DNA of 64,000 bases from an uncultured Anaerolineaceae bacterium. GTDB taxonomy: Bacteria; Chloroflexota; Anaerolineae; Anaerolineales; UBA4823. The notes under the pieces were generated by a model, which saw only the letters and a program-made list of their open reading frames with translations, searched no databases and was not told the origin of the DNA. The DNA is taken from contig CAYLPS010000005.1 in the NCBI GenBank assembly GCA_964385625.1, positions 220-64,219 of the forward strand, read 5' to 3'. Within the stretch, counting starts at the first letter, position 1; every line of letters begins with the position of its first letter. The translations under genes were made by a program, and so were the position numbers. Below, one piece after another: positions 2,946 through 49,150 of this stretch.

Positions 2946-3680
2946 TCATGCTGCCACTTTCTGGCCGCATTCCGGGCAAAATTTCGCCCCAGGATCAAGC
3001 TTGGCGCCACATCCAACGCAAATCAGCTCGGCTTCCACCCGTGCGCCGCACTCGGGACAAAACTTGGTGCCGGCAGCCAGCTTGGCGCCGCATTTAGCGC
3101 ACTTGAGCTCAACCAGGATTTCGGCCCCGCATTCAGGGCAGAATTTCGTCTTAGCGGGTAGGGGCTTGCCACAATTCGGGCAAGTGGCGCGCACGCCTTC
3201 ACGCCAGGCCGCTTCCTTCATCATCGCCAGGTCCTCTTCGGCCACCTTGGAGTGTGCCCAGATCTCTTCGGTTGTACGGCTGGCCTGGGCGGCAGCCATT
3301 TCCACTCCCAGGTCGGGGGCACACTGCTTGCACAGGCCGCGCTTCTCATTCCAACAGTTCTTGCGGCACACCCAGCTGGTGCAGCGCGGGCACTGGATGA
3401 AATCCGCCTTGACCTCCTCGATGGCCTTGAGGAAGGCATCGTCGTGGGCCTTTTCCCAGGTGGCGGAGCGAACATTTTCGCTGACATTCGACATGCCGCC
3501 AAACAGCCCGCCGAAGAGATTGCTTGCGGTGTTCAAGGCTGTGGCTGCCGTGCCCAATGCTGAAGCCTGGAAGCGGGTGCGGTAACCACTGCCACAGCGG
3601 TCGCACTTGAACTCAAATTGAAATCCCTGGTTGTTGCTCAAGTCTTCGTAATTACGGGTAAATTCAATGCGCTGACTCAT
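2946..3680 (-). CDS. zinc-ribbon domain protein with three tandem C-terminal CxxC-x10-CxxC ribbons
   Basis: 244 aa. C-terminal repeats: CPNCGKPLPAKTKFCPECGA / CAKCGAKLAAGTKFCPECGA / CVGCGAKLDPGAKFCPECGQ. Additional CxxC pairs occur in the N-terminal half. Confidence 0.6.
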   Translation of the reverse strand: MSQRIEFTRNYEDLSNNQGFQFEFKCDRCGSGYRTRFQASALGTAATALNTASNLFGGLFGGMSNVSENVRSATWEKAHDDAFLKAIEEVKADFIQCPRCTSWVCRKNCWNEKRGLCKQCAPDLGVEMAAAQASRTTEEIWAHSKVAEEDLAMMKEAAWREGVRATCPNCGKPLPAKTKFCPECGAEILVELKCAKCGAKLAAGTKFCPECGARVEAELICVGCGAKLDPGAKFCPECGQKVAA

Positions 3681-21116: not shown

Positions 21117-21421
21117 CAATTGGTCTTTGAAAAGCGATGATGGAAACGAGTATGCCTGCTTGCCTGCCAGCGACCCCGGGGATGGTGCGAGCCGGGGCAG
21201 TGCTACAGGCTGAAAATCCTTCCGGAGCTGCAATCTGAACACGCTGAGGCGCCAGTAAGAAAGCCGGATTTGCCAGACGTTACCCCAGGCACGTGGATCG
21301 TCTCCTGCTAAATATGTAGACTGTCTGCGCAGCGGAGGTGCTCGCCCAATAGCGAGAACCAGGGTGGTACCGCGGGAGTGTTATTATTTGCTCTCGTCCC
21401 TGAGCTGGGATGAGAGTTTTT
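21117..21421 (+). promoter_or_regulatory. T-box riboswitch leader (tRNA-Ile sensing)
   Basis: Stem I elements: GCGATGATGGAAACGAGTA (K-turn/GA motif), AGCGA bulge and a GGATGGTGCGAG distal loop closed by CCCCGG/CCGGGG. The canonical T-box sequence GGGTGGTACCGCG is at 21362-21374. The candidate specifier AUC at 21216-21218 sits in GAAAAUCC. A terminator follows. Confidence 0.85.
21391..21421 (+). terminator. T-box expression-platform terminator
   Basis: CTCTCGTCCC (21391-21400) pairs with GGGATGAGAG (21407-21416, one G-U), followed by T5. The 5' arm can alternatively pair with CGGGAG of the T-box sequence to form the antiterminator. Confidence 0.75.
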
Positions 21422-21586: not shown

Positions 21587-24500
21587 ATGCCATTTCAAGA
21601 AGTGTCTAATAAAGTTGATTTCCAGGCGCAGGAGCGTGAGATTCTCAAGTTTTGGGAAGACAGCCATGCCTTCGAGAAAATGGTTGCCATACACAAGGGA
21701 CAGCCTCGCTGGTCGTTCATCGATGGGCCTATTACAGCCAATAACCCCATGGGCGTGCACCATGGCTGGGGACGCACTTACAAGGACCTGATGCTGCGCT
21801 TCCGCACCATGCAGGGGCACGAGCTGCGCTACCAGAACGGCTTTGATTGCCAGGGGCTGTGGGTGGAAGTGAACGTGGAGCGCGACCTGGGCTTCAAGAC
21901 CAAGCTGGACATTGAAGATTTCGGGCTGGCGAAGTTCGTACTCAAGTGCAAGGAGCGCGTGCTGCGCTATGCCGCCGTGCAGACCGAGCAATCCATCCGC
22001 CTGGGATACTGGATGGATTGGAATGACCCCACCTTGCTTAACGACCTGGCGGATAAGTTAATGGAAGACCCTGCCCAGGTAATCACCGTCCCCGGGCAAA
22101 AAGGGGCGTATACCGACACGGTGGAGCAGGTGGTGGCTCACCTGGGCCTGCCGGAGCTGGGTGGGAGTTACTTCACTTTCTCCAACGAGAACAACTACAT
22201 GATCTGGGCCTTCCTGAAGAAGTGCTGGCAGAACGGCTGGCTGTACAAGGGGGATGACGTGATGCCCTGGTGCCCGCGCTGCGCCACGGGGCTCAGCCAG
22301 CACGAGATCGCCACCGAGGGCTACCAGGAGCTGACCCACAACTCAGTAACCCTGCGCTTCCCGCTTTTGGGACGCGAAAATGAATCCCTGCTGGTGTGGA
22401 CAACCACACCCTGGACGCTCACCAGCAATGTGGCCGCTGCGGTGGGCCCTGAGCTCACCTATGCCAGAGTACGCCAGGGTGACCAGGTTCTGTACCTCTC
22501 CAGGGGTACGCTGGATATGCTCAAAGGGCCATACGAATTGCTGGGAGAGCTAAAAGGTGCCGAGATGGAGGGCTGGCGCTATGCCGGCCCGTTCGATGAC
22601 CTGCCACCGGCTCAACGACCGGGCGGCTACACCTCGCTCACCGTGCTGATCCGGGACGTGAAGCAAAGCGCGGTAGAGGCTCACAGGGTGATCCTGTGGG
22701 ATGCGGTGGGCGAAGAGGAGGGCACCGGCATCGTGCACATCGCCCCCGGCGCTGGCGCGGAAGATTTCCAGCTGGGCAAAGAGAACCACCTGCCGATCAT
22801 CGCCCCCTTGAACGAGGAGGGTGAATTCCTGGACGGTTTCGGCTGGTTGAGCGGCAGGCACGTTTTGGAAGTGGCTGAGCTAATCTTCGATGACCTGCGC
22901 CGTAAAGGTTTGCTGTACCGCGTGGAACCCTACACCCACCGTTACCCGGTATGCTGGCGTTGTGGCACCGAGCTGGTGTTCCGCCTGGTGGATGAGTGGT
23001 TCATCAGCATGGGAAAGACCTACGACAAGCCGCGTGAAGAGCTGAGCTCCGAGGAAAAAGCCCGCTCGCTGCGCTACCAGATCATGGATGTGGTGGATCA
23101 GATCAAGTGGATCCCTGATTTCGGCTATGCGCGTGAGATGGATTGGCTTCGCAACATGCACGATTGGATGATCAGCAAAAAGCGCTATTGGGGGTTAGCG
23201 CTGCCCATCTGGGAATGCGAGGCCTGCGGTAATTTCGAGGTCATCGGTGGCGACGATGAGCTACAGCAGCGCGCCACCGCCGGCCTGGATGTGCTGGACG
23301 GACATACCCCCCACCGGCCGTATATCGATGCAGTTACCATCGCCTGCTCGAAGTGCGGGGGAGACATGCAGCGCGTGCGCGATGTGGGCAACCCCTGGCT
23401 GGATGCCGGTATCGTACCCTTCAGCACGCTCAGCTATCGCAAGGATCCCGATTATTGGCGCACCTGGTACCCGGCCAGGTGGATCAGCGAATCATTCCCC
23501 GGGCAGTTTCGTAACTGGTTTTATAGCCTGCTGGCTATGGCTACGGTGATGGATGGCACTCCACCTTTCCTGGAGAACTTCGGTTACGCCACTTTGCTCG
23601 GGCCTGATGGACGCCCCATGCACAAGAGCTGGGGAAATATGATCGAGTTCAACGAGGCCGCCGAAAAGATGGGGGTGGACGTGATGCGCTGGCTGTTCTG
23701 CACGCACAAGCCCGAGAGTGACCTGATATTCGGCTATGAATCTGATGCATTGCACACTTTTAGGAGTGGGAACGATGTGCGTAAGGAATTCATCATGCCC
23801 TTATGGAATGCCTACAGCTTCTTCACCAATTATGCCCGCCTGGACGGCTGGCTGCCGAATGGTGACTTCGATGCAAGCCTTCCCGAAGGTGATACCCCAC
23901 GCAGCGATAACCTGCTGGATCGCTGGATCCTGGCACGCCTCAACCAGGTGGTGGCGCAAGTAAGCGCTTATCTCGAGGCCTCCGACCCGATGAATGCCAG
24001 CCTGACCTGCGAGGCATTCCTGGACGACCTGACCAACTGGTACATCCGGCGCTCGCGGCGGCGCTACTGGAAATCGGAGCACGACGAAGATAAGAACACC
24101 GCCTATGCCACCCTGTACCACGTGCTGGTCAAGTTCGCCAGGGTCCTTGCTCCTTTTATCCCCTTCACCAGCGAGGTGATTTACCAAAACCTGGTGCGCA
24201 ATATTCGCCCGGAAGCCTACGATAGCATCCACCATACGGCATGGCCCGAGGTGGACCAGAGCAGCGTGGATGAAGCCTTACAGGAGCAGATGGGCCTGGC
24301 CAGGAAGATCGCTTCCCTGGGGCACAGCGCCAGGAAAAGCACCGGCATCAAGGTGAAGCAGCCGCTCAGCAAGGTGATGGTGTATGCCGGTCAAGCGCTG
24401 CTGCGCGATGAGCTGGTGGAGATCGTGAAAGATGAGCTGAATGTCAAGGTCTTTGAGTTCGTCGAACAGCAAGGCGCGTTGGTAAATTACAGGGTGCTGC

Positions 24501-25018
24501 CAGATAACAAGATATTGGGTCCCAGGTTCGGGGCACGCTTCCCGCAAGTGCGTGCCGCCCTGGCACAGTTAGACCCTGCCAGGGTGGTTGCCAGCGTGAG
24601 TGCCGGGTCGCCAGTCACATTGCAGCTGGACGGTGAAACGGTCGAGCTGGAATCCACCAGCCTCCTGGTGAGCAGCGAGCCGCGCCCGGGTTTGGCTGTG
24701 GCAGGTGATAAATATGCCACCGTGGGCATCGACACCTCCCTCACCCCCCAGCTAAAGCTGGAAGGCCTGGCGCGCGAAGTGGTGCGCCTCGTCCAGGATA
24801 TGCGCAAGAAAGCCGGCTTCAACATCGAGGATCGCATCACCACCTGCTACCAGGCAGAAGGTGTGTTGGTGCAGGTAATTACAACCTGGGGCGATTACAT
24901 TCAATCTGAGACGCTTACCACCCGCCTGCTGGATGCCCCACCCATCGAGGGGTCTTACGTGGAACAATTTGAGCTGGAGGGTGAGAATCTCTTACTGGCA
25001 ATAAAGCAGAATAATTGA
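21587..25018 (+). CDS. ileS: isoleucine--tRNA ligase (long, type-2-like form)
   Basis: The ORF track starts at 21503, inside the leader. GGAGGA lies upstream of the ATG at 21587, giving MPFQEVSNKVDFQAQEREILKFWED. HIGH-type motif PMGVHHGWGRT, editing-domain insertion, KMSKS-type MHKSWGN. About 1143 aa. Confidence 0.93.
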   Translation: MPFQEVSNKVDFQAQEREILKFWEDSHAFEKMVAIHKGQPRWSFIDGPITANNPMGVHHGWGRTYKDLMLRFRTMQGHELRYQNGFDCQGLWVEVNVERDLGFKTKLDIEDFGLAKFVLKCKERVLRYAAVQTEQSIRLGYWMDWNDPTLLNDLADKLMEDPAQVITVPGQKGAYTDTVEQVVAHLGLPELGGSYFTFSNENNYMIWAFLKKCWQNGWLYKGDDVMPWCPRCATGLSQHEIATEGYQELTHNSVTLRFPLLGRENESLLVWTTTPWTLTSNVAAAVGPELTYARVRQGDQVLYLSRGTLDMLKGPYELLGELKGAEMEGWRYAGPFDDLPPAQRPGGYTSLTVLIRDVKQSAVEAHRVILWDAVGEEEGTGIVHIAPGAGAEDFQLGKENHLPIIAPLNEEGEFLDGFGWLSGRHVLEVAELIFDDLRRKGLLYRVEPYTHRYPVCWRCGTELVFRLVDEWFISMGKTYDKPREELSSEEKARSLRYQIMDVVDQIKWIPDFGYAREMDWLRNMHDWMISKKRYWGLALPIWECEACGNFEVIGGDDELQQRATAGLDVLDGHTPHRPYIDAVTIACSKCGGDMQRVRDVGNPWLDAGIVPFSTLSYRKDPDYWRTWYPARWISESFPGQFRNWFYSLLAMATVMDGTPPFLENFGYATLLGPDGRPMHKSWGNMIEFNEAAEKMGVDVMRWLFCTHKPESDLIFGYESDALHTFRSGNDVRKEFIMPLWNAYSFFTNYARLDGWLPNGDFDASLPEGDTPRSDNLLDRWILARLNQVVAQVSAYLEASDPMNASLTCEAFLDDLTNWYIRRSRRRYWKSEHDEDKNTAYATLYHVLVKFARVLAPFIPFTSEVIYQNLVRNIRPEAYDSIHHTAWPEVDQSSVDEALQEQMGLARKIASLGHSARKSTGIKVKQPLSKVMVYAGQALLRDELVEIVKDELNVKVFEFVEQQGALVNYRVLPDNKILGPRFGARFPQVRAALAQLDPARVVASVSAGSPVTLQLDGETVELESTSLLVSSEPRPGLAVAGDKYATVGIDTSLTPQLKLEGLAREVVRLVQDMRKKAGFNIEDRITTCYQAEGVLVQVITTWGDYIQSETLTTRLLDAPPIEGSYVEQFELEGENLLLAIKQNN

Positions 25019-27365: not shown

Positions 27366-30047
27366 TTGTCTGACCAGCTAATTTCCACAACCGACCATAC
27401 GGAGCGGCGCCTGCTCATTGTCGCCGGGGCATTTTTGGCAGTGTTTTCATTGGCGCTGACGCTTTCCAACGCAGCCCGCTTACGCAGCTGGCAGGTGGAC
27501 TATCGCTGGTCGCACTGGTTGGGCCTGGCAGTGTGGTTGGCAATCGCCTGGCTGGCCCACCGGCAATTATCCAGGCATTTGCCCAATCGAGATCCATATA
27601 TCTTCCCGGTTGCCATGCTGCTCACAGGTTGGGGCATCCTCACCATGTGGCGCCTATCCGATGTGTATGGCATTCGCCAGGTTGCCTGGCTGCTATTGAT
27701 TGGCATGCTGGTGCTCTTGGCGTTGCATTATGACGGCCAGGTGAGGGGTGGAAGGATTTTATTCCAGTTGCGGCGTTTCAAGTACATCTGGCTCACCAGT
27801 GGGCTGTTGCTCACCGCAGCGACGCTTTTCCTGGGGACGAACCCGCTTGGTGCAGGCCCGCGCTTATGGCTGGGATGCTGCGGGATTTACTTCCAGCCAT
27901 CCGAGCCGCTCAAGCTGCTGCTGGTGATATACCTGGCAGCTTATCTGGCAGATCGCCAGGCTTCACCCAACCTACCCACCAGGCTGCTGCCCCTGTTAGC
28001 CCCCACCCTGGTGATGACCGGCATCGCCTTGCTGCTGCTGGTGTTCCAGCGCGACCTGGGCACGGCGATGATCTTTATTGCGCTTTATGCGGTGATCATA
28101 TTCAGCGGAACGGGTAATAAAAAGGTGTTTTTAGCGGGATTTGTTGTGCTGATCGTGGCGATGGTGGCCGGTTACCTGCTGTTTGATGTGGTAAGCCAGC
28201 GCGTGGATGCCTGGATCAACCCATGGATCGACCCGGCCGGGGGTTCTTACCAGATCGTCCAATCGTTGCTGGCAGTGGCGAATGGCGGCTTGCTGGGGCG
28301 CGGCATAGGCATGGGCAGCCCCAGCCTGGTGCCAATTGCCCAATCAGATTTCATCTTTTCGGCAATCAGCGAAGAGACCGGGTTGCTGGGGGCGGTGGGC
28401 ATCCTGGCATTGCTGGCGGTGCTGGTGAACCGCGGTATGCGAATGGCTCTAAGGTCTACAGATACTTTTCAACGCCTGCTAGCGGTTGGGTTGGTGGCCC
28501 ACCTGGTGGGGCAAAGTATCTTGATCATCGCCGGCAACCTGCGCCTGTTACCCCTCACCGGAGTGACCCTGCCCTTCGTATCCAGTGGAGGATCCTCGCT
28601 GCTGGTATCCTTTTTTGAGCTGCTATGCCTGCTGTTGATTGGAGCCAGCCAGCAGGAAGACCCGGTTTTCCAGCCAGCCCAGCTGAAAGCTCAAACCGGG
28701 CTCATCCGCTTGCTCTCAGTTGTGATGACAGCAGGATTGCTGGGATGCACCTTGGCTGTTGGTTGGTGGAGCTTGGTGCGCGCGCCCGCCCTGCTCAGCC
28801 GCTCCGACAACCCCCGGCGTTCCATTGCCGATCGCTACGTGAAACGTGGCACGATTTTTGACAGCCGCGGGAACATCCTGGCCGAATCCACCGGCATCTC
28901 GGGCAGCTTCTACCGCCATTATCCCTATTCGGCACTCGGCCCGCTGCTGGGATACACCGACCAGGCATATGGGCAAGCCGGGTTGGAAGCCAGCCTGGAC
29001 CTGTACCTGCGCGGATTGCAAGGTTACCCAACATTGACCATGTGGTGGCAGAACCTGCTTTACGGCCAACCACCTCCAGGACTGGATGTGCGCTTGAGCC
29101 TCGACCTCGATTTACAACGCACTGCAGACAATATGCTGACAGGTCAGCGGGGAGCCGCTGTGCTGCTGAACGCTGCCACGGGTGAGGTGCTGGTTTTCGC
29201 ATCCAGCCCCACCTTCGATGCCAACCAGCTGGCAGCTAATTGGGACCGGCTGGTCAATGACCCCTCAGCACCGCTCTTCGACCGAGCTGCGATGGGCTTG
29301 TACCCACCCGTGAATGCCATGGGGGTATTCTTGCTCGCCGCTAGCCAGGTAGATCCTTCAAGCCAATTCGACGGCACCGACTTTTCCGATTGTGTTACGG
29401 TCGCCACAGGGCATAGCTGGGCAGGCGTGATTTCTGCCGGGTGCAGCGCGCCTGTCAGGCTTCTGTTGAGCTCGATGAGCAGCCAGCAGCTGGTGGATTT
29501 TCTGGACAGAATGGGGTTTTACACAGCCCCCACTTTCCCGGTGGAAGCGCTCTCCTCCAGCATCCCTGAGAGCCTGACGGCAGCCTATTCCTACCTTACC
29601 GGTGAGCAAGCGGGGCCTGGCGGGCAGGATGCACTCAAGGTGAGCCCCCTACAAATGGCATTGGCAGCGGCCGCGCTTAGCAACGGAGGGCAAATGCCTG
29701 TCCCGCGACTGGCAGTAGCCGTGGATACCCCTCTGGCGGGCTGGGTGATGTTACCCTCCGAACAGGATGCACAACAGGAGCTGGAAATTTCATCCACCAG
29801 CAGTGTTGTGCAGGCCTTGCTGGCTGATGACCTGCCCATCTGGCAATCAGTGGCCTCCTGGGGTGGTGCTTCAGCCCCTGATGGTGCGGAAAATGATGGC
29901 TCGAAGGGCTTTTCCTGGTACCTTGGAGGCACCTCCGGTGATTGGAAAGGCGCTCCACTGGCGGTGGCAATCTTATTGGAGGAAAATAATCCCGGCCTGG
30001 CACAAGATATCGGACAGCGCCTATTCCAGCAAGCCATGTATCCATAA
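27366..30047 (+). CDS. SEDS (FtsW/RodA-type) peptidoglycan polymerase fused to a class-B PBP-like domain lacking the catalytic motifs
   Basis: 893 aa with a TTG start. SEDS motifs are intact: QPSEPLKLLLVIYLAAYL, RDLGTAMIF, SDFIFSAISEETGLLG, PLTGVTLPFVSSGGSSLL. An extra TM follows (aa 445-470), then a PBP pedestal and transpeptidase-like fold: RGTIFDSRGNILA, AAVLLNAATGEVLVFASSPTFDAN, VSPLQMALAAAALSNGG. Confidence 0.85.
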   Translation: MSDQLISTTDHTERRLLIVAGAFLAVFSLALTLSNAARLRSWQVDYRWSHWLGLAVWLAIAWLAHRQLSRHLPNRDPYIFPVAMLLTGWGILTMWRLSDVYGIRQVAWLLLIGMLVLLALHYDGQVRGGRILFQLRRFKYIWLTSGLLLTAATLFLGTNPLGAGPRLWLGCCGIYFQPSEPLKLLLVIYLAAYLADRQASPNLPTRLLPLLAPTLVMTGIALLLLVFQRDLGTAMIFIALYAVIIFSGTGNKKVFLAGFVVLIVAMVAGYLLFDVVSQRVDAWINPWIDPAGGSYQIVQSLLAVANGGLLGRGIGMGSPSLVPIAQSDFIFSAISEETGLLGAVGILALLAVLVNRGMRMALRSTDTFQRLLAVGLVAHLVGQSILIIAGNLRLLPLTGVTLPFVSSGGSSLLVSFFELLCLLLIGASQQEDPVFQPAQLKAQTGLIRLLSVVMTAGLLGCTLAVGWWSLVRAPALLSRSDNPRRSIADRYVKRGTIFDSRGNILAESTGISGSFYRHYPYSALGPLLGYTDQAYGQAGLEASLDLYLRGLQGYPTLTMWWQNLLYGQPPPGLDVRLSLDLDLQRTADNMLTGQRGAAVLLNAATGEVLVFASSPTFDANQLAANWDRLVNDPSAPLFDRAAMGLYPPVNAMGVFLLAASQVDPSSQFDGTDFSDCVTVATGHSWAGVISAGCSAPVRLLLSSMSSQQLVDFLDRMGFYTAPTFPVEALSSSIPESLTAAYSYLTGEQAGPGGQDALKVSPLQMALAAAALSNGGQMPVPRLAVAVDTPLAGWVMLPSEQDAQQELEISSTSSVVQALLADDLPIWQSVASWGGASAPDGAENDGSKGFSWYLGGTSGDWKGAPLAVAILLEENNPGLAQDIGQRLFQQAMYP

Positions 30048-46880: not shown

Positions 46881-47621
46881 TCAGCCACTGACAGGGATGC
46901 CGTACTTTGAAAATACCACTTGCAAAGTATGCTTCGTTTGGGCATAGAACTCGTCACCCATCTTGTCAACCAGGTGATATTTTCGGTAGACCCACACCGA
47001 ATGATCATAGTTCATGCGGTCGAGAATCACATAATCAACCTTGCCTGCCAGCAGCTCTCCCAGGCCATCCGCAGCGGGAAGCATGGGGGCGATCATCACG
47101 TAGGTGCGCAAGCCCGCCCTGTGCAGCTCGTCCAGCGCCTTGATCCGCTGGTCGATCACCGGGGCGTGCGGCTCAAACAGCTTGCGGATCGCATCATCGG
47201 CAGTGGTCACGCTCAATCCAACCTCGAACCCATCCCCCTCCTTGAGGATATCGATATCCCGCGTCACCAACGGGGAGCGCGTTTGGATGGAGGCGGGCCA
47301 CCCATGCTGTGCCAGGATTTCCAGGCATTGGCGAGTGAGCTGGTATTTCGCCTCCAGCGGCTGGTAAGGGTCACACACCCCACTCACCCACACGCGCTCG
47401 GGTTTCTTCCGCGCAATCTGCTTGCGTAATAATTCAGGGGCATTGATTTTGACATCGACGAACTCTCCCCACGGTTCCAGGTGGTGGCTAAAGCGCTTCA
47501 TGAAACGCGCATAGCAATAGGTACAACCATGCGCACAGCCGGTGTAAGGGTTGATTACATATGGGAAAACTTTCGAGGTTGAAAGGACTGTTTTCGGAGT
47601 GACATCTTTGACGATTATCAT
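46881..47621 (-). CDS. radical SAM protein, spore-photoproduct-lyase/DNA-photolyase-like (COG1533-type)
   Basis: 246 aa. N-terminal INPYTGCAHGCTYCYARF CxxxCxxC cluster. Confidence 0.75.
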   Translation of the reverse strand: MIIVKDVTPKTVLSTSKVFPYVINPYTGCAHGCTYCYARFMKRFSHHLEPWGEFVDVKINAPELLRKQIARKKPERVWVSGVCDPYQPLEAKYQLTRQCLEILAQHGWPASIQTRSPLVTRDIDILKEGDGFEVGLSVTTADDAIRKLFEPHAPVIDQRIKALDELHRAGLRTYVMIAPMLPAADGLGELLAGKVDYVILDRMNYDHSVWVYRKYHLVDKMGDEFYAQTKHTLQVVFSKYGIPVSG

Positions 47622-47743
47622 GCTATTTTTAGGGTTCTAACTGCCAGGTTGGGGTACCAAAGCTTCGATCTGCCTGGCGTGCTCCAGCTGGGTGATTGAG
47701 GGATCAATCCTGGTCACCATGGTTATTCCTCGAAGATTAAAAA

Positions 47744-47752
47744 TGGTATAAT
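47744..47752 (+). promoter_or_regulatory. candidate extended -10 promoter element of the tyrS leader
   Basis: TGgTATAAT at 47744-47752. The -35 is poor (TATTCC at 47724-47729). Confidence 0.4.
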
Positions 47753-47758
47753 CGGCGC

Positions 47759-47797
47759 ATGAGAAATAGTGGCTACGGCTATTATACAAGCACTTGA
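47759..47797 (+). CDS. candidate leaderless Tyr-rich leader peptide MRNSGYGYYTST
   Basis: The ATG lies 7 nt after the -10 hexamer and has no SD. Tyr codons at 47774-47776, 47780-47782 and 47783-47785. TGA at 47795-47797. Confidence 0.4.
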   Translation: MRNSGYGYYTST

Positions 47798-47804
47798 TCC
47801 CTAT

Positions 47805-47834
47805 CTGTGGAGAGTCTGGCGCGTCCTCCCACAG
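47805..47834 (+). promoter_or_regulatory. candidate antiterminator helix
   Basis: CTGTGGAGAG (47805-47814) pairs with CTCCCACAG (47826-47834): 9 bp with one bulged A. It overlaps the 5' arm and loop of the terminator. Confidence 0.45.
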
Positions 47835-47849
47835 AGGGCGCGTTTTTTT
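47820..47849 (+). terminator. intrinsic terminator in the tyrS 5' leader
   Basis: CGCGTCCTC (47820-47828), CCACA loop, GAGGGCGCG (47834-47842; 9 bp with one G-U), then T7 (47843-47849). It lies 57 nt upstream of the tyrS ATG. Confidence 0.75.
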
Positions 47850-47905
47850 ATCACCAGGAAAATACGCTGGCAGTCACCGTCAAAAGTGACAAAAAGGAGG
47901 CACGC

Positions 47906-49150
47906 ATGGGAAAAAAGATGATGAGCATCGACGAGCAGGTGGAATACCTGATGCAGGGCACCGAATATGGCGATGACGAGCTGAAACAGGCCATGGGAAA
48001 CGAGCTGCGCCAGCGCCTGATTGAAGCCGGGCGCGACGGTCGCCCGCTGAGGGTGTACTGCGGGTATGACCCCACCAAGCCCGACTTGCACCTGGGACAC
48101 ACCATCACCATGCGCAAGCTGGCTCAATTCCAAGAGCTGGGGCATGAAGTGACCTTCCTCATCGGCAACTACACCTCTTTAATTGGCGACCCATCTGATA
48201 AAAACAAGACCCGCCCCATCCTCTCCCCCGATGAAGTGGCCATGAATTCCGGCACCTATGCCGAACAGGTATTCCATGTCCTGGACCGCTCTAAGACCAT
48301 CATCCGCTATAATGCCGAGTGGCTTTCGAAGATCACCTTTGAAAAGCTGATCCAGCTGTGCTCCAACTTCACCGTCCAGCAGTTCATCACCCGTGAAAAC
48401 TTCAAGTTACGCTGGGATGCGGGTGAGCCCATCTTCTTCCACGAATTCTTCTATGCCATCATGCAGGGTTATGACGCCTACGCCATGCGCACCGACGTCC
48501 AGGTGGGGGGCACCGACCAGCTGTTTAATATCGTCACCGCAGCGCGTAAAATCATGGCCTACCTAGGTGAAAAACCCAATATCGCCATCATCATGGGCCT
48601 GCTGCCAGGTACGGATGGCGAGGTGAAGATGAGTAAATCAATGGGTAATTACATTCCCATCGATACCACGGCGGATGACATGTATGGCAAGCTGATGAGC
48701 GTCCCGGATAAAGCCATGCCCGTTTATTTCCGGCTGGTCACACGGTGGACGGCATCAGAGATCGCCTTGATGGAGAAGGAAATCTCTTCAGGCAAGCTCC
48801 ACCCGCGCGACGCCAAGATGAAGCTGGCACGTGAAGTGACCGAAATCTTCCACGGGGCTGAGGCTGCCAGGATGGCGGAGGAAAATTTCATCAACATTTT
48901 TAGGAAACACAACCTGCCTGATGAAAAAGACCTGCCCACATTCGTTCTTAAACCCACACATACCGTGCTGGATGTCCTGGTGGAAGGGAAGCTGGTGAAG
49001 AGCAAAAGTGAGGGACGCCGTTTGTTGGAACAAAACGGGGTGCGGTTGGATGGGGAAACCTTGAAAGATGCGAATCAAATCATCCCCCACCCGGGTATTT
49101 TACAAGCGGGCAAACGCCACTCGCTTAAAGTGGTCAGTAACAACGATTAA
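47906..49150 (+). CDS. tyrS: tyrosine--tRNA ligase
   Basis: AAGGAGG upstream of the ATG at 47906; the track ORF start at 47807 lies inside the leader and terminator. HIGH-type DLHLGH, KMSKS present, C-terminal S4-like domain ([18 protein letters not shown]). Confidence 0.92.

Follow-up and report, generated by a model that had tools for sequence, protein, structure and literature searches.

We analysed a 64-kb stretch of DNA (64,000 nucleotides; hereafter the window) from a contig of an uncultured Anaerolineaceae bacterium, in which the gene for tyrosine--tRNA ligase, tyrS, is preceded by a short leader that carries clustered Tyr codons, an antiterminator helix and an intrinsic terminator. 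This leader is very likely a ribosome-mediated transcription attenuator, through which the supply of charged tRNA-Tyr would set the expression of tyrS, and the attenuator probably sits on a leaderless mRNA. A first-pass annotation had proposed this reading from the window alone, and comparative evidence now supports it strongly: the Tyr codons, the reading frame, the position of the start codon and the covariation of the two alternative helices are conserved, and a T-box is absent. The design is kept in ~85 related Anaerolineales sequences. The transcription start site (TSS), translation of the leader open reading frame (ORF), the 3′ end at the U-run, the footprint of the ribosome and the response to tyrosine are features that we infer from sequence.

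The tyrS leader in the window

The elements of the leader, and tyrS itself, are as follows.

47744-47752, + strand: extended -10 element TGgTATAAT, read directly; the -35 region is weak
47759-47797, + strand: leader ORF of 12 codons, MRNSGYGYYTST, read directly; stop codon UGA (TGA in the DNA) at 47795-47797
47774-47785, + strand: putative regulatory Tyr codons, read directly; TAC 47774-76, TAT 47780-82 and TAT 47783-85
47799-47814, + strand: 5′ arm of the antiterminator (helix A, extended), from the fold of nascent RNA 47798-47838
47826-47838, + strand: 3′ arm of the antiterminator, from the same fold
47818-47849, + strand: intrinsic terminator, from a consensus scan and folding; stem 47818-28/47834-44, loop CCACA, T7 at 47843-49
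47896-47900, + strand: Shine-Dalgarno (SD) sequence of tyrS, GGAGG, 5 nt before the ATG; GAGG is kept in the clade alignment
47906-49150, + strand: tyrS, tyrosine--tRNA ligase, 414 aa; match to TIGR00234 (the tyrS equivalog) at 340.6 bits against a cut-off of 113.8

Only 6 nt (CGGCGC) separate the -10 hexamer from the ATG of the leader ORF, so there is no room for an SD sequence in front of it; the A of the ATG lies 7 nt past the hexamer, at the predicted TSS. Tyr accounts for three of the 11 codons after Met, and the last Tyr is three codons ahead of the stop. The extended -10 element, the ATG at 47759 and the Tyr-rich run of 11 codons are thus exactly where the first-pass annotation had placed them, as a direct reading of the sequence confirms. 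Nowhere else in the window, on either strand, is a -10-like hexamer followed 5-9 nt later by a start codon that opens an ORF of ≤35 aa with a strong terminator no more than 110 nt away.

Downstream of the ORF, the antiterminator has 13 bp (47799-801/47836-38, 47804-10/47829-35 and 47812-14/47826-28; -16.1 kcal/mol), and its 5′ arm starts 2 nt past the leader stop (0-12 nt across loci). Its 3′ arm is shared with the terminator, of which it comprises the loop and, on either side, the top of the 5′ arm and the first 5 nt of the 3′ arm; the two structures are therefore mutually exclusive, and folding bore out the sharing of nucleotides on which the first-pass annotation had based this conclusion. 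The helices themselves had been drawn too short. The 9-bp helix A originally described (47805-14/47826-34) does form, but it is only part of the full antiterminator of 13 bp (47799-814/47826-838). Likewise, helix B (47820-28/47834-42) has the loop CCACA, the T7 tract and the 57-nt distance from tyrS ascribed to it, but its stem extends to 47818-28/47834-44. With 11 pairs, seven of them G-C, the terminator has a folding energy of -18.3 kcal/mol (z = -3.25), and none of 200 shuffled sequences was as stable. The consensus scan found no other terminator-like site between 46800 and 49400, and this one ends 57 nt ahead of the tyrS ATG. The SD sequence of tyrS is unpaired in the centroid fold; part of it is paired in a weak long-range helix of the minimum free energy structure.

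In the mechanism that we propose, transcription would start at the A of ATG 47759 or within a base of it, and the 12-codon ORF would be translated as a leaderless message. When Tyr-tRNA is plentiful, the ribosome would reach the UGA at 47795 and cover the next ~10-12 nt, which make up most of the antiterminator 5′ arm (47799-47814). With this arm covered, the terminator (47818-47844 plus U7) would fold and the polymerase would stop at ~47849, ~57 nt before tyrS. When Tyr-tRNA is scarce, the ribosome would stall with a Tyr codon (47780-85) in the A site and its front edge would extend only to about the stop codon. The free 5′ arm could then pair with 47826-47838 once this has been made, the terminator would be blocked and the polymerase would read into tyrS. 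A ribosome at the Tyr codons would leave the antiterminator intact and one at the stop would mask it, so read-through is expected when Tyr-tRNA is scarce and termination when it is plentiful.

Conservation of codons, frame and alternative pairing

Relatives were collected with a tyrosyl-tRNA synthetase (TyrRS) protein query, which gave 80 tyrS loci from species-representative genomes at 81-57% identity, all of them from metagenome-assembled genomes (MAGs) of Anaerolineales or other Chloroflexota. To avoid circularity, terminators upstream of tyrS were located first, with Tyr codons ignored; 49 of the 80 loci have one. TAYTAY occurs within 75 nt upstream of the terminator in 38 of these 49 loci, usually 38-41 nt before the stem, compared with ~3 expected by chance. 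In all 38, an in-frame stop follows the last Tyr by 1-6 codons (mostly 3), where chance would give ~0.2 per locus. Clustered Tyr codons, which the first-pass annotation had suggested looking for in related genomes, are thus conserved. Four more loci have interrupted Tyr clusters (YVY, YNHY, YCYC and YAAYAY).

All 22 short-leader loci in the genomes have a perfect TATAAT, with a gap to the start codon of 6 nt (15 loci), 7 nt (2), 8 nt (4) or 9 nt (1). For a test of the start codon, genomes and metagenomes were pooled and any start 5-9 nt past the TATAAT was taken, whatever its frame. All 46 starts obtained in this way begin an open frame that contains the Tyr codons and ends at the stop, against a chance of 1/3 per locus; the gap is 6 nt in 32, 7 nt in 3, 8 nt in 10 and 9 nt in 1.

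The encoded peptides are 8-20 aa long and share nothing except the run of Tyr, the remainder varying freely. The shortest have 8-10 aa (e.g. MKWNNYYQ and MDQLVYYYVG), and the leader of a MAG assigned to Anaerolinea thermophila (locus L048) reads MNTCTHAYYYLP before its stop. Within the clade of the window (16 sequences), the invariant parts are AATGGTATAATC, the ATG, TATTATACA, both helix arms and the T-run, and variation is seen in the promoter-distal flank, in the middle part of the ORF and in the spacer past the terminator. Differences in the length of the leader ORF within this clade are of 3 or 6 nt, i.e. multiples of 3. Peptides and helix sequences are diverse, which argues for selection maintained over a long time, despite shared ancestry. 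Among the Tyr codons of the leaders in 22 loci, 76% are TAT (52:16 TAT:TAC), compared with 41% in the tyrS genes of the same loci (450:635; Fisher p = 2e-8). This bias appears to reflect a preference either for the wobble-read codon or for an A+U-rich, unstructured 5′ end.

The same bias could be put down to a need for sequence rather than for coding, given that the tyrS genes favour TAC, and with the nearly fixed distance of ~40 nt between UAYUAY and the terminator it suggests another explanation: that the switch is independent of translation, a protein (e.g. TyrRS) or an RNA recognising the UAUUAU(UAY) tract and selecting helix A or B, with the ORF incidental. A precedent for autoregulation of a synthetase gene through its own leader RNA is E. 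coli thrS, as cited in PMC2965389. We nonetheless consider such a switch very improbable. A recognised tract does not account for start codons in frame with it in 46 of 46 cases, for the stop codons in 38 of 38 or for ORF length changes in multiples of 3. The tract also varies between T and C at third positions, and where it is interrupted, it is the Tyr codons that are kept and not a set RNA sequence; nor does any Rfam family match the leader region. Moreover, in 16 loci (described below) the tract is the end of a real gene for a protein of about 170 aa, and must therefore be translated.

We then return to ribosome-mediated attenuation and the pairing that it needs. An alignment-free comparison showed that the segment from the stop to the terminator pairs with the terminator 5′ arm and loop better than shuffled sequences do in 21 of 35 loci. 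Cognate arms pair with a mean of -16.85 kcal/mol and non-cognate arms with -13.21 kcal/mol (permutation p = 5e-5; the observed mean was not reached in any of 20,000 permutations). The two arms of the antiterminator change together from locus to locus, as in CTGTGG/CCACAG, CTGCGG/CCGCAG, GATGGTG/CACCATC, GCTGTG/CACAGC and CGGCTGAG/CTCGCCG. In a raw MAFFT alignment, i.e. one not fitted to the structure, 74.8% of the antiterminator cells are paired, compared with 39-54% when the partners are slid, and 7 of the 13 antiterminator pairs show two-sided changes; none of 500 shuffles reached the covariation score. A strong terminator of its own folds in each of the 35 relatives analysed. The alternative pairing of A and B, which had been proposed as a test of the first-pass annotation, is accordingly conserved, with arms that covary both in the cognate test and in the seven two-sided pairs.

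The position of the helices relative to the ORF was explored with a simple footprint model, in which ~13 nt are assumed to be protected from the first base of the A-site codon, in line with bacterial ribosome footprints in general. In the window, a modelled ribosome at the last Tyr leaves 14 antiterminator pairs (-16.1 kcal/mol) and one at the stop leaves 6 (-4.7 kcal/mol). Over the 35 loci, the means are 10.2 pairs with the ribosome at the last Tyr and 5.3 with it at the stop (Wilcoxon p = 4e-5).

Several observations weigh against ribosome-mediated attenuation on a leaderless message, or temper the figures given for it. The sampled sequences share ancestry, so that there are fewer independent events than the counts suggest. 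The share of Tyr is 27% among leader residues and 3.5% in the proteins of the window, a comparison that draws on loci picked for containing YY and for which the Tyr-blind selection by terminator is the fairer test. The terminator stem (helix B) is so nearly invariant that hardly any covariation can be seen in it on the MAFFT alignment, which mixes two registers. In three loci (L014, L016 and L041) the antiterminator starts 11-12 nt past the stop, where the terminating ribosome of the model does not cover it. A hairpin at 47766-47785 within the leader ORF of the window (UACG loop, +8 to +27, -8.6 kcal/mol) could hinder leaderless initiation. Across 22 loci no conserved anti-antiterminator or pause hairpin of the 1:2 type, which could hold ribosome and polymerase in step, was found, the folds of the ORFs being no better than those of shuffled sequences (mean z +0.43); as no conserved hairpin forms over the ORF, an untranslated leader should default to read-through. 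Finally, the leader is very short, its U-run ending at ~+91, so a ribosome would have to load at the 5′ end and translate 12 codons before the polymerase clears the terminator. The 47766-47785 hairpin was also considered as a pause or 1:2 element and rejected as a conserved feature; it is idiosyncratic to the window and makes no contact with helix A.

Tyr codons at the end of an upstream gene

Sixteen relatives carry the Tyr codons at the 3′ end of a gene of 168-222 aa (orfU), which stands directly upstream of tyrS and in the same orientation (L005, L007, L009, L015, L017, L019, L022, L024, L027, L029, L032, L040, L044, L050, L052 and L057; at ~2350-2920 in each locus). Its product is a membrane protein with a bacterial PH domain (PF10756, bPH_6). 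Where orfU precedes the attenuator, YY or YYY is followed by 2-3 codons, the stop, the same antiterminator and terminator, and then tyrS; typical tails before the stop are ...GYYYARE and ...QYYARP. The orfU genes at loci with no attenuator (L006, L010, L018 and L021) have a single Tyr, with tails such as ...VVYTR, ...VIYSR and ...LSYTRKN. The window itself lacks orfU.

Since the orfU tails carry YY or YYY with the attenuator and a single Tyr without it, we tentatively suggest that the Tyr sensor may be a portable module that occurs in two contexts, as a leaderless mini-ORF or as the last codons of an ordinary gene of 170-220 aa, one form having evolved from the other. If so, a full-length orfU would act as the 'leader peptide', the ribosome that finishes orfU would decide on read-through into tyrS, and sensing at the end of a gene would be a general route by which attenuators arise.

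The orfU form also bears on whether the peptide itself might be the sensor. In the manner of TnaC, a nascent peptide with C-terminal YY(Y)xxx, together with free tyrosine, could slow release at the stop and hold the ribosome over the 5′ arm of helix A, which would favour termination. The Tyr residues do always lie 1-6 residues before the stop, where arrest peptides act, and the direction of control would be the same as with hungry codons (more tyrosine, less tyrS). However, only the Tyr residues of the peptides are conserved, some leaders have just 8-10 aa, which is too short to fill the exit tunnel, and at other loci the same Tyr tail works on a protein of 170 aa. Stalling at hungry codons explains the data with no extra assumption, and an arrest peptide has a correspondingly slim chance of being the answer.

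That the mini-ORF is a relic, i.e. the decayed 3′ end of orfU followed by the ordinary orfU terminator and with no regulation of tyrS, is the least credible alternative: the same Tyr tail and terminator do end a full-length orfU in 16 relatives, where a terminator after the stop is unremarkable, and there is a rearrangement directly upstream of the window promoter, but across lineages with TyrRS only ~60% identical a relic would not have retained a perfect TATAAT, its Tyr codons, an open frame and a start at the predicted +1, a plain terminator needs no covarying antiterminator, orfU tails have one Tyr without the attenuator and two or three with it, and the window has no co-oriented upstream gene for a terminator to serve.

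Other arrangements were seen among the relatives. At L011 (~2990-3012), the tail of the bPH gene (GYYYEH before the stop) overlaps the ATG of tyrS (TATTATTATGAACATT) and there is no attenuator, which looks like a deletion that fused the ends of the bPH gene and tyrS. Variant Tyr leaders at L017, L029, L044, L052 and L057, and at L035, L038, L051 and L059 (in the 100 nt before tyrS), have an extra strong hairpin between the leader ORF and the terminator, the 5′ arm of which takes in the leader stop. When four of these (L029, L051, L052 and L059) were folded, no antiterminator was evident in the equilibrium folds and no convincing switching logic could be derived. Another conserved tyrS leader, GGTAAAATC ... 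ACGGTCATACGCCGAAA(T)TTGACCGTGCAGGAG, lies ~90 nt before tyrS at L069, L074, L077 and L078; it has a hairpin that abuts the SD sequence and no Rfam match at the gathering score.

Specificity, known systems and neighbouring genes

A covariance model of the leader (R1) detected a single copy at each locus, invariably right in front of tyrS and on the coding strand, and none elsewhere in 596 kb; in the window it matches 47777-47850 with 66.6 bits. Metagenomes were scanned with a loose DNA pattern in which the terminator sequence was fixed, so that a wider Tyr regulon could escape it. There were 120 matches, 56 of which have an in-frame stop and a T-rich tail. Among these 56, 48 precede tyrS (48 of the 52 that could be evaluated), four are at contig ends and four are elsewhere. 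The last four were set aside as chance matches, which adjoin unrelated, phage-like or secreted-protein genes. None of the 64 matches lacking the stop and tail precedes tyrS.

The T-box is the usual regulator of tyrS in Firmicutes, and tyrS was its founding example. In the window, a scan for Rfam families at gathering scores gave nothing, and between 47500 and 48000 neither a T-box nor any other credible family was found at E ≤ 10, the only matches being noise (MIR478 and sR3). From these empty scans, a T-box and all other described RNA families can be rejected for the leader, in agreement with the first-pass annotation, which had seen no T-box there and had named a degenerate one as the case to exclude. 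As a positive control, the T-box that it had reported for ileS was recovered: RF00230 matches a full-length leader at 21128-21404 (+ strand) with 90.9 bits (E = 2e-20), which is just under the Rfam gathering score of 93 and explains why the gathering scan missed it. The ileS gene starts at ATG 21588 (21588-25018) and encodes a class I synthetase with DUF5915. Relatives that lack the attenuator showed no T-box, either at the gathering score (40 loci) or at E ≤ 1e-3 (9 loci). A visible replacement of a T-box by the attenuator within the Anaerolineales is consequently unsupported.

Like the proposed tyrS attenuator, the T-box (RF00230) takes tRNA charging as its input and controls read-through of a terminator before a synthetase gene, by competition between antiterminator and terminator. 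However, it binds uncharged tRNA directly and needs at least ~200 nt, whereas the tyrS leader has ~91 nt and its codons would be read by the ribosome.

Leader-peptide attenuation is a textbook mechanism, but one known for few amino acids and from few phyla, chiefly Proteobacteria and Actinobacteria. A synthetase operon controlled in this way is pheST of E. coli, with its leader peptide pheM. The tyrS leader resembles pheM-pheST in having a short ORF rich in cognate codons before a synthetase gene, alternative hairpins and a charged-tRNA signal that the ribosome would read; it differs in the amino acid (Tyr), the gene (tyrS), the phylum (Chloroflexota), the lack of an SD sequence, a start codon at the predicted TSS and the presence of two helices only. 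With the four-segment trpL leader it shares two or three regulatory codons in a row that precede the stop by a few codons, a terminating ribosome that would cover the 5′ arm of the antiterminator, and a terminator with a U-run. It differs from trpL in having no conserved 1:2 anti-antiterminator or pause hairpin, with the consequence that an untranslated leader should read through rather than be super-attenuated. A 2010 survey knew of no case of leader-peptide attenuation demonstrated in other phyla than those usual ones, apart from its own hisS case in Firmicutes (PMC2965389). Among synthetase genes, trpS and leuS of Streptomyces are predicted to have leader-peptide attenuators (PMC1262725).

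Leaderless leader peptides also have precedents. In Corynebacterium glutamicum, the leader peptide of ilvBNC is translated from a leaderless mRNA and controls a terminator via alternative hairpins (PMC11857589). The tyrS leader would be alike in both respects, whereas ilvBNC has three hairpins, one of which (H1) prevents leaderless initiation, and concerns branched-chain amino acids, a biosynthetic operon and the Actinobacteria. The leaderless poly-Cys small ORFs of mycobacteria act on translation, by freeing a sequestered ribosome-binding site (bioRxiv 10.1101/834739). Here too a leaderless small ORF with clustered codons of one amino acid would stall the ribosome and regulate what lies downstream; in contrast to these, the tyrS leader has an intrinsic terminator with U7, and the SD sequence of tyrS is unpaired in the centroid fold.

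In the literature we found no Tyr leader peptide, no tyrS attenuator of this kind and none in Anaerolineae, with the caveat that coverage was incomplete and absence is not proof. What would be new, judged on the sequences, is Tyr as the amino acid, tyrS as the target, Chloroflexota as the phylum and the minimal, leaderless two-helix form; the type of mechanism is already known. Within 27 kb, one organism would control ileS by a T-box and tyrS by an attenuator that the ribosome reads. With two helices in ~91 nt, the leader would be a simple system for asking how a ribosome that has loaded on a leaderless 5′ end stays in step with RNA polymerase, and the ~85 diverged natural variants already amount to a mutational series. 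It could also serve as a compact tyrosine-responsive part. An ORF of 12 codons is below the sizes that gene callers usually report; gene callers and Rfam-based pipelines would miss both the ORF and the element.

A survey has predicted that Chloroflexi have leaderless genes marked by a TAtaaT signal (PMC3160421). In five more distant relatives (L070, L072, L073, L076 and L080), tyrS itself begins 6-7 nt past a TATAAT, with no SD sequence and no attenuator. In these, tyrS looks leaderless, and the architecture would therefore serve an essential gene in this lineage. In the window, ORFs at 926 and 10938 (both - strand) start 7 nt past TATAAT or TATGAT; one has at least 308 aa and runs off the end of the window, the other has 348 aa, and both are candidates for further leaderless genes of the same genome.

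On its upstream side in the window, the leader has no co-oriented gene that its terminator could serve. A 27-aa ORF at 47640-47720 (- strand), MVTRIDPSITQLEHARQIEALVPQPGS, represents the start of a DinB/ClbS-like gene (158 aa) in truncated form; in L001-L004 this gene stands divergently upstream of the tyrS leader. A rearrangement breakpoint is therefore placed just upstream of the leader promoter. The next gene in the window is a radical-SAM gene at 46881-47621 (- strand). Further away, a single ORF of 893 aa at 27366-30047 (+ strand) has an FtsW/RodA (SEDS) domain followed by the dimerisation and transpeptidase domains of a penicillin-binding protein (PBP), and appears to encode a fused SEDS-PBP protein.

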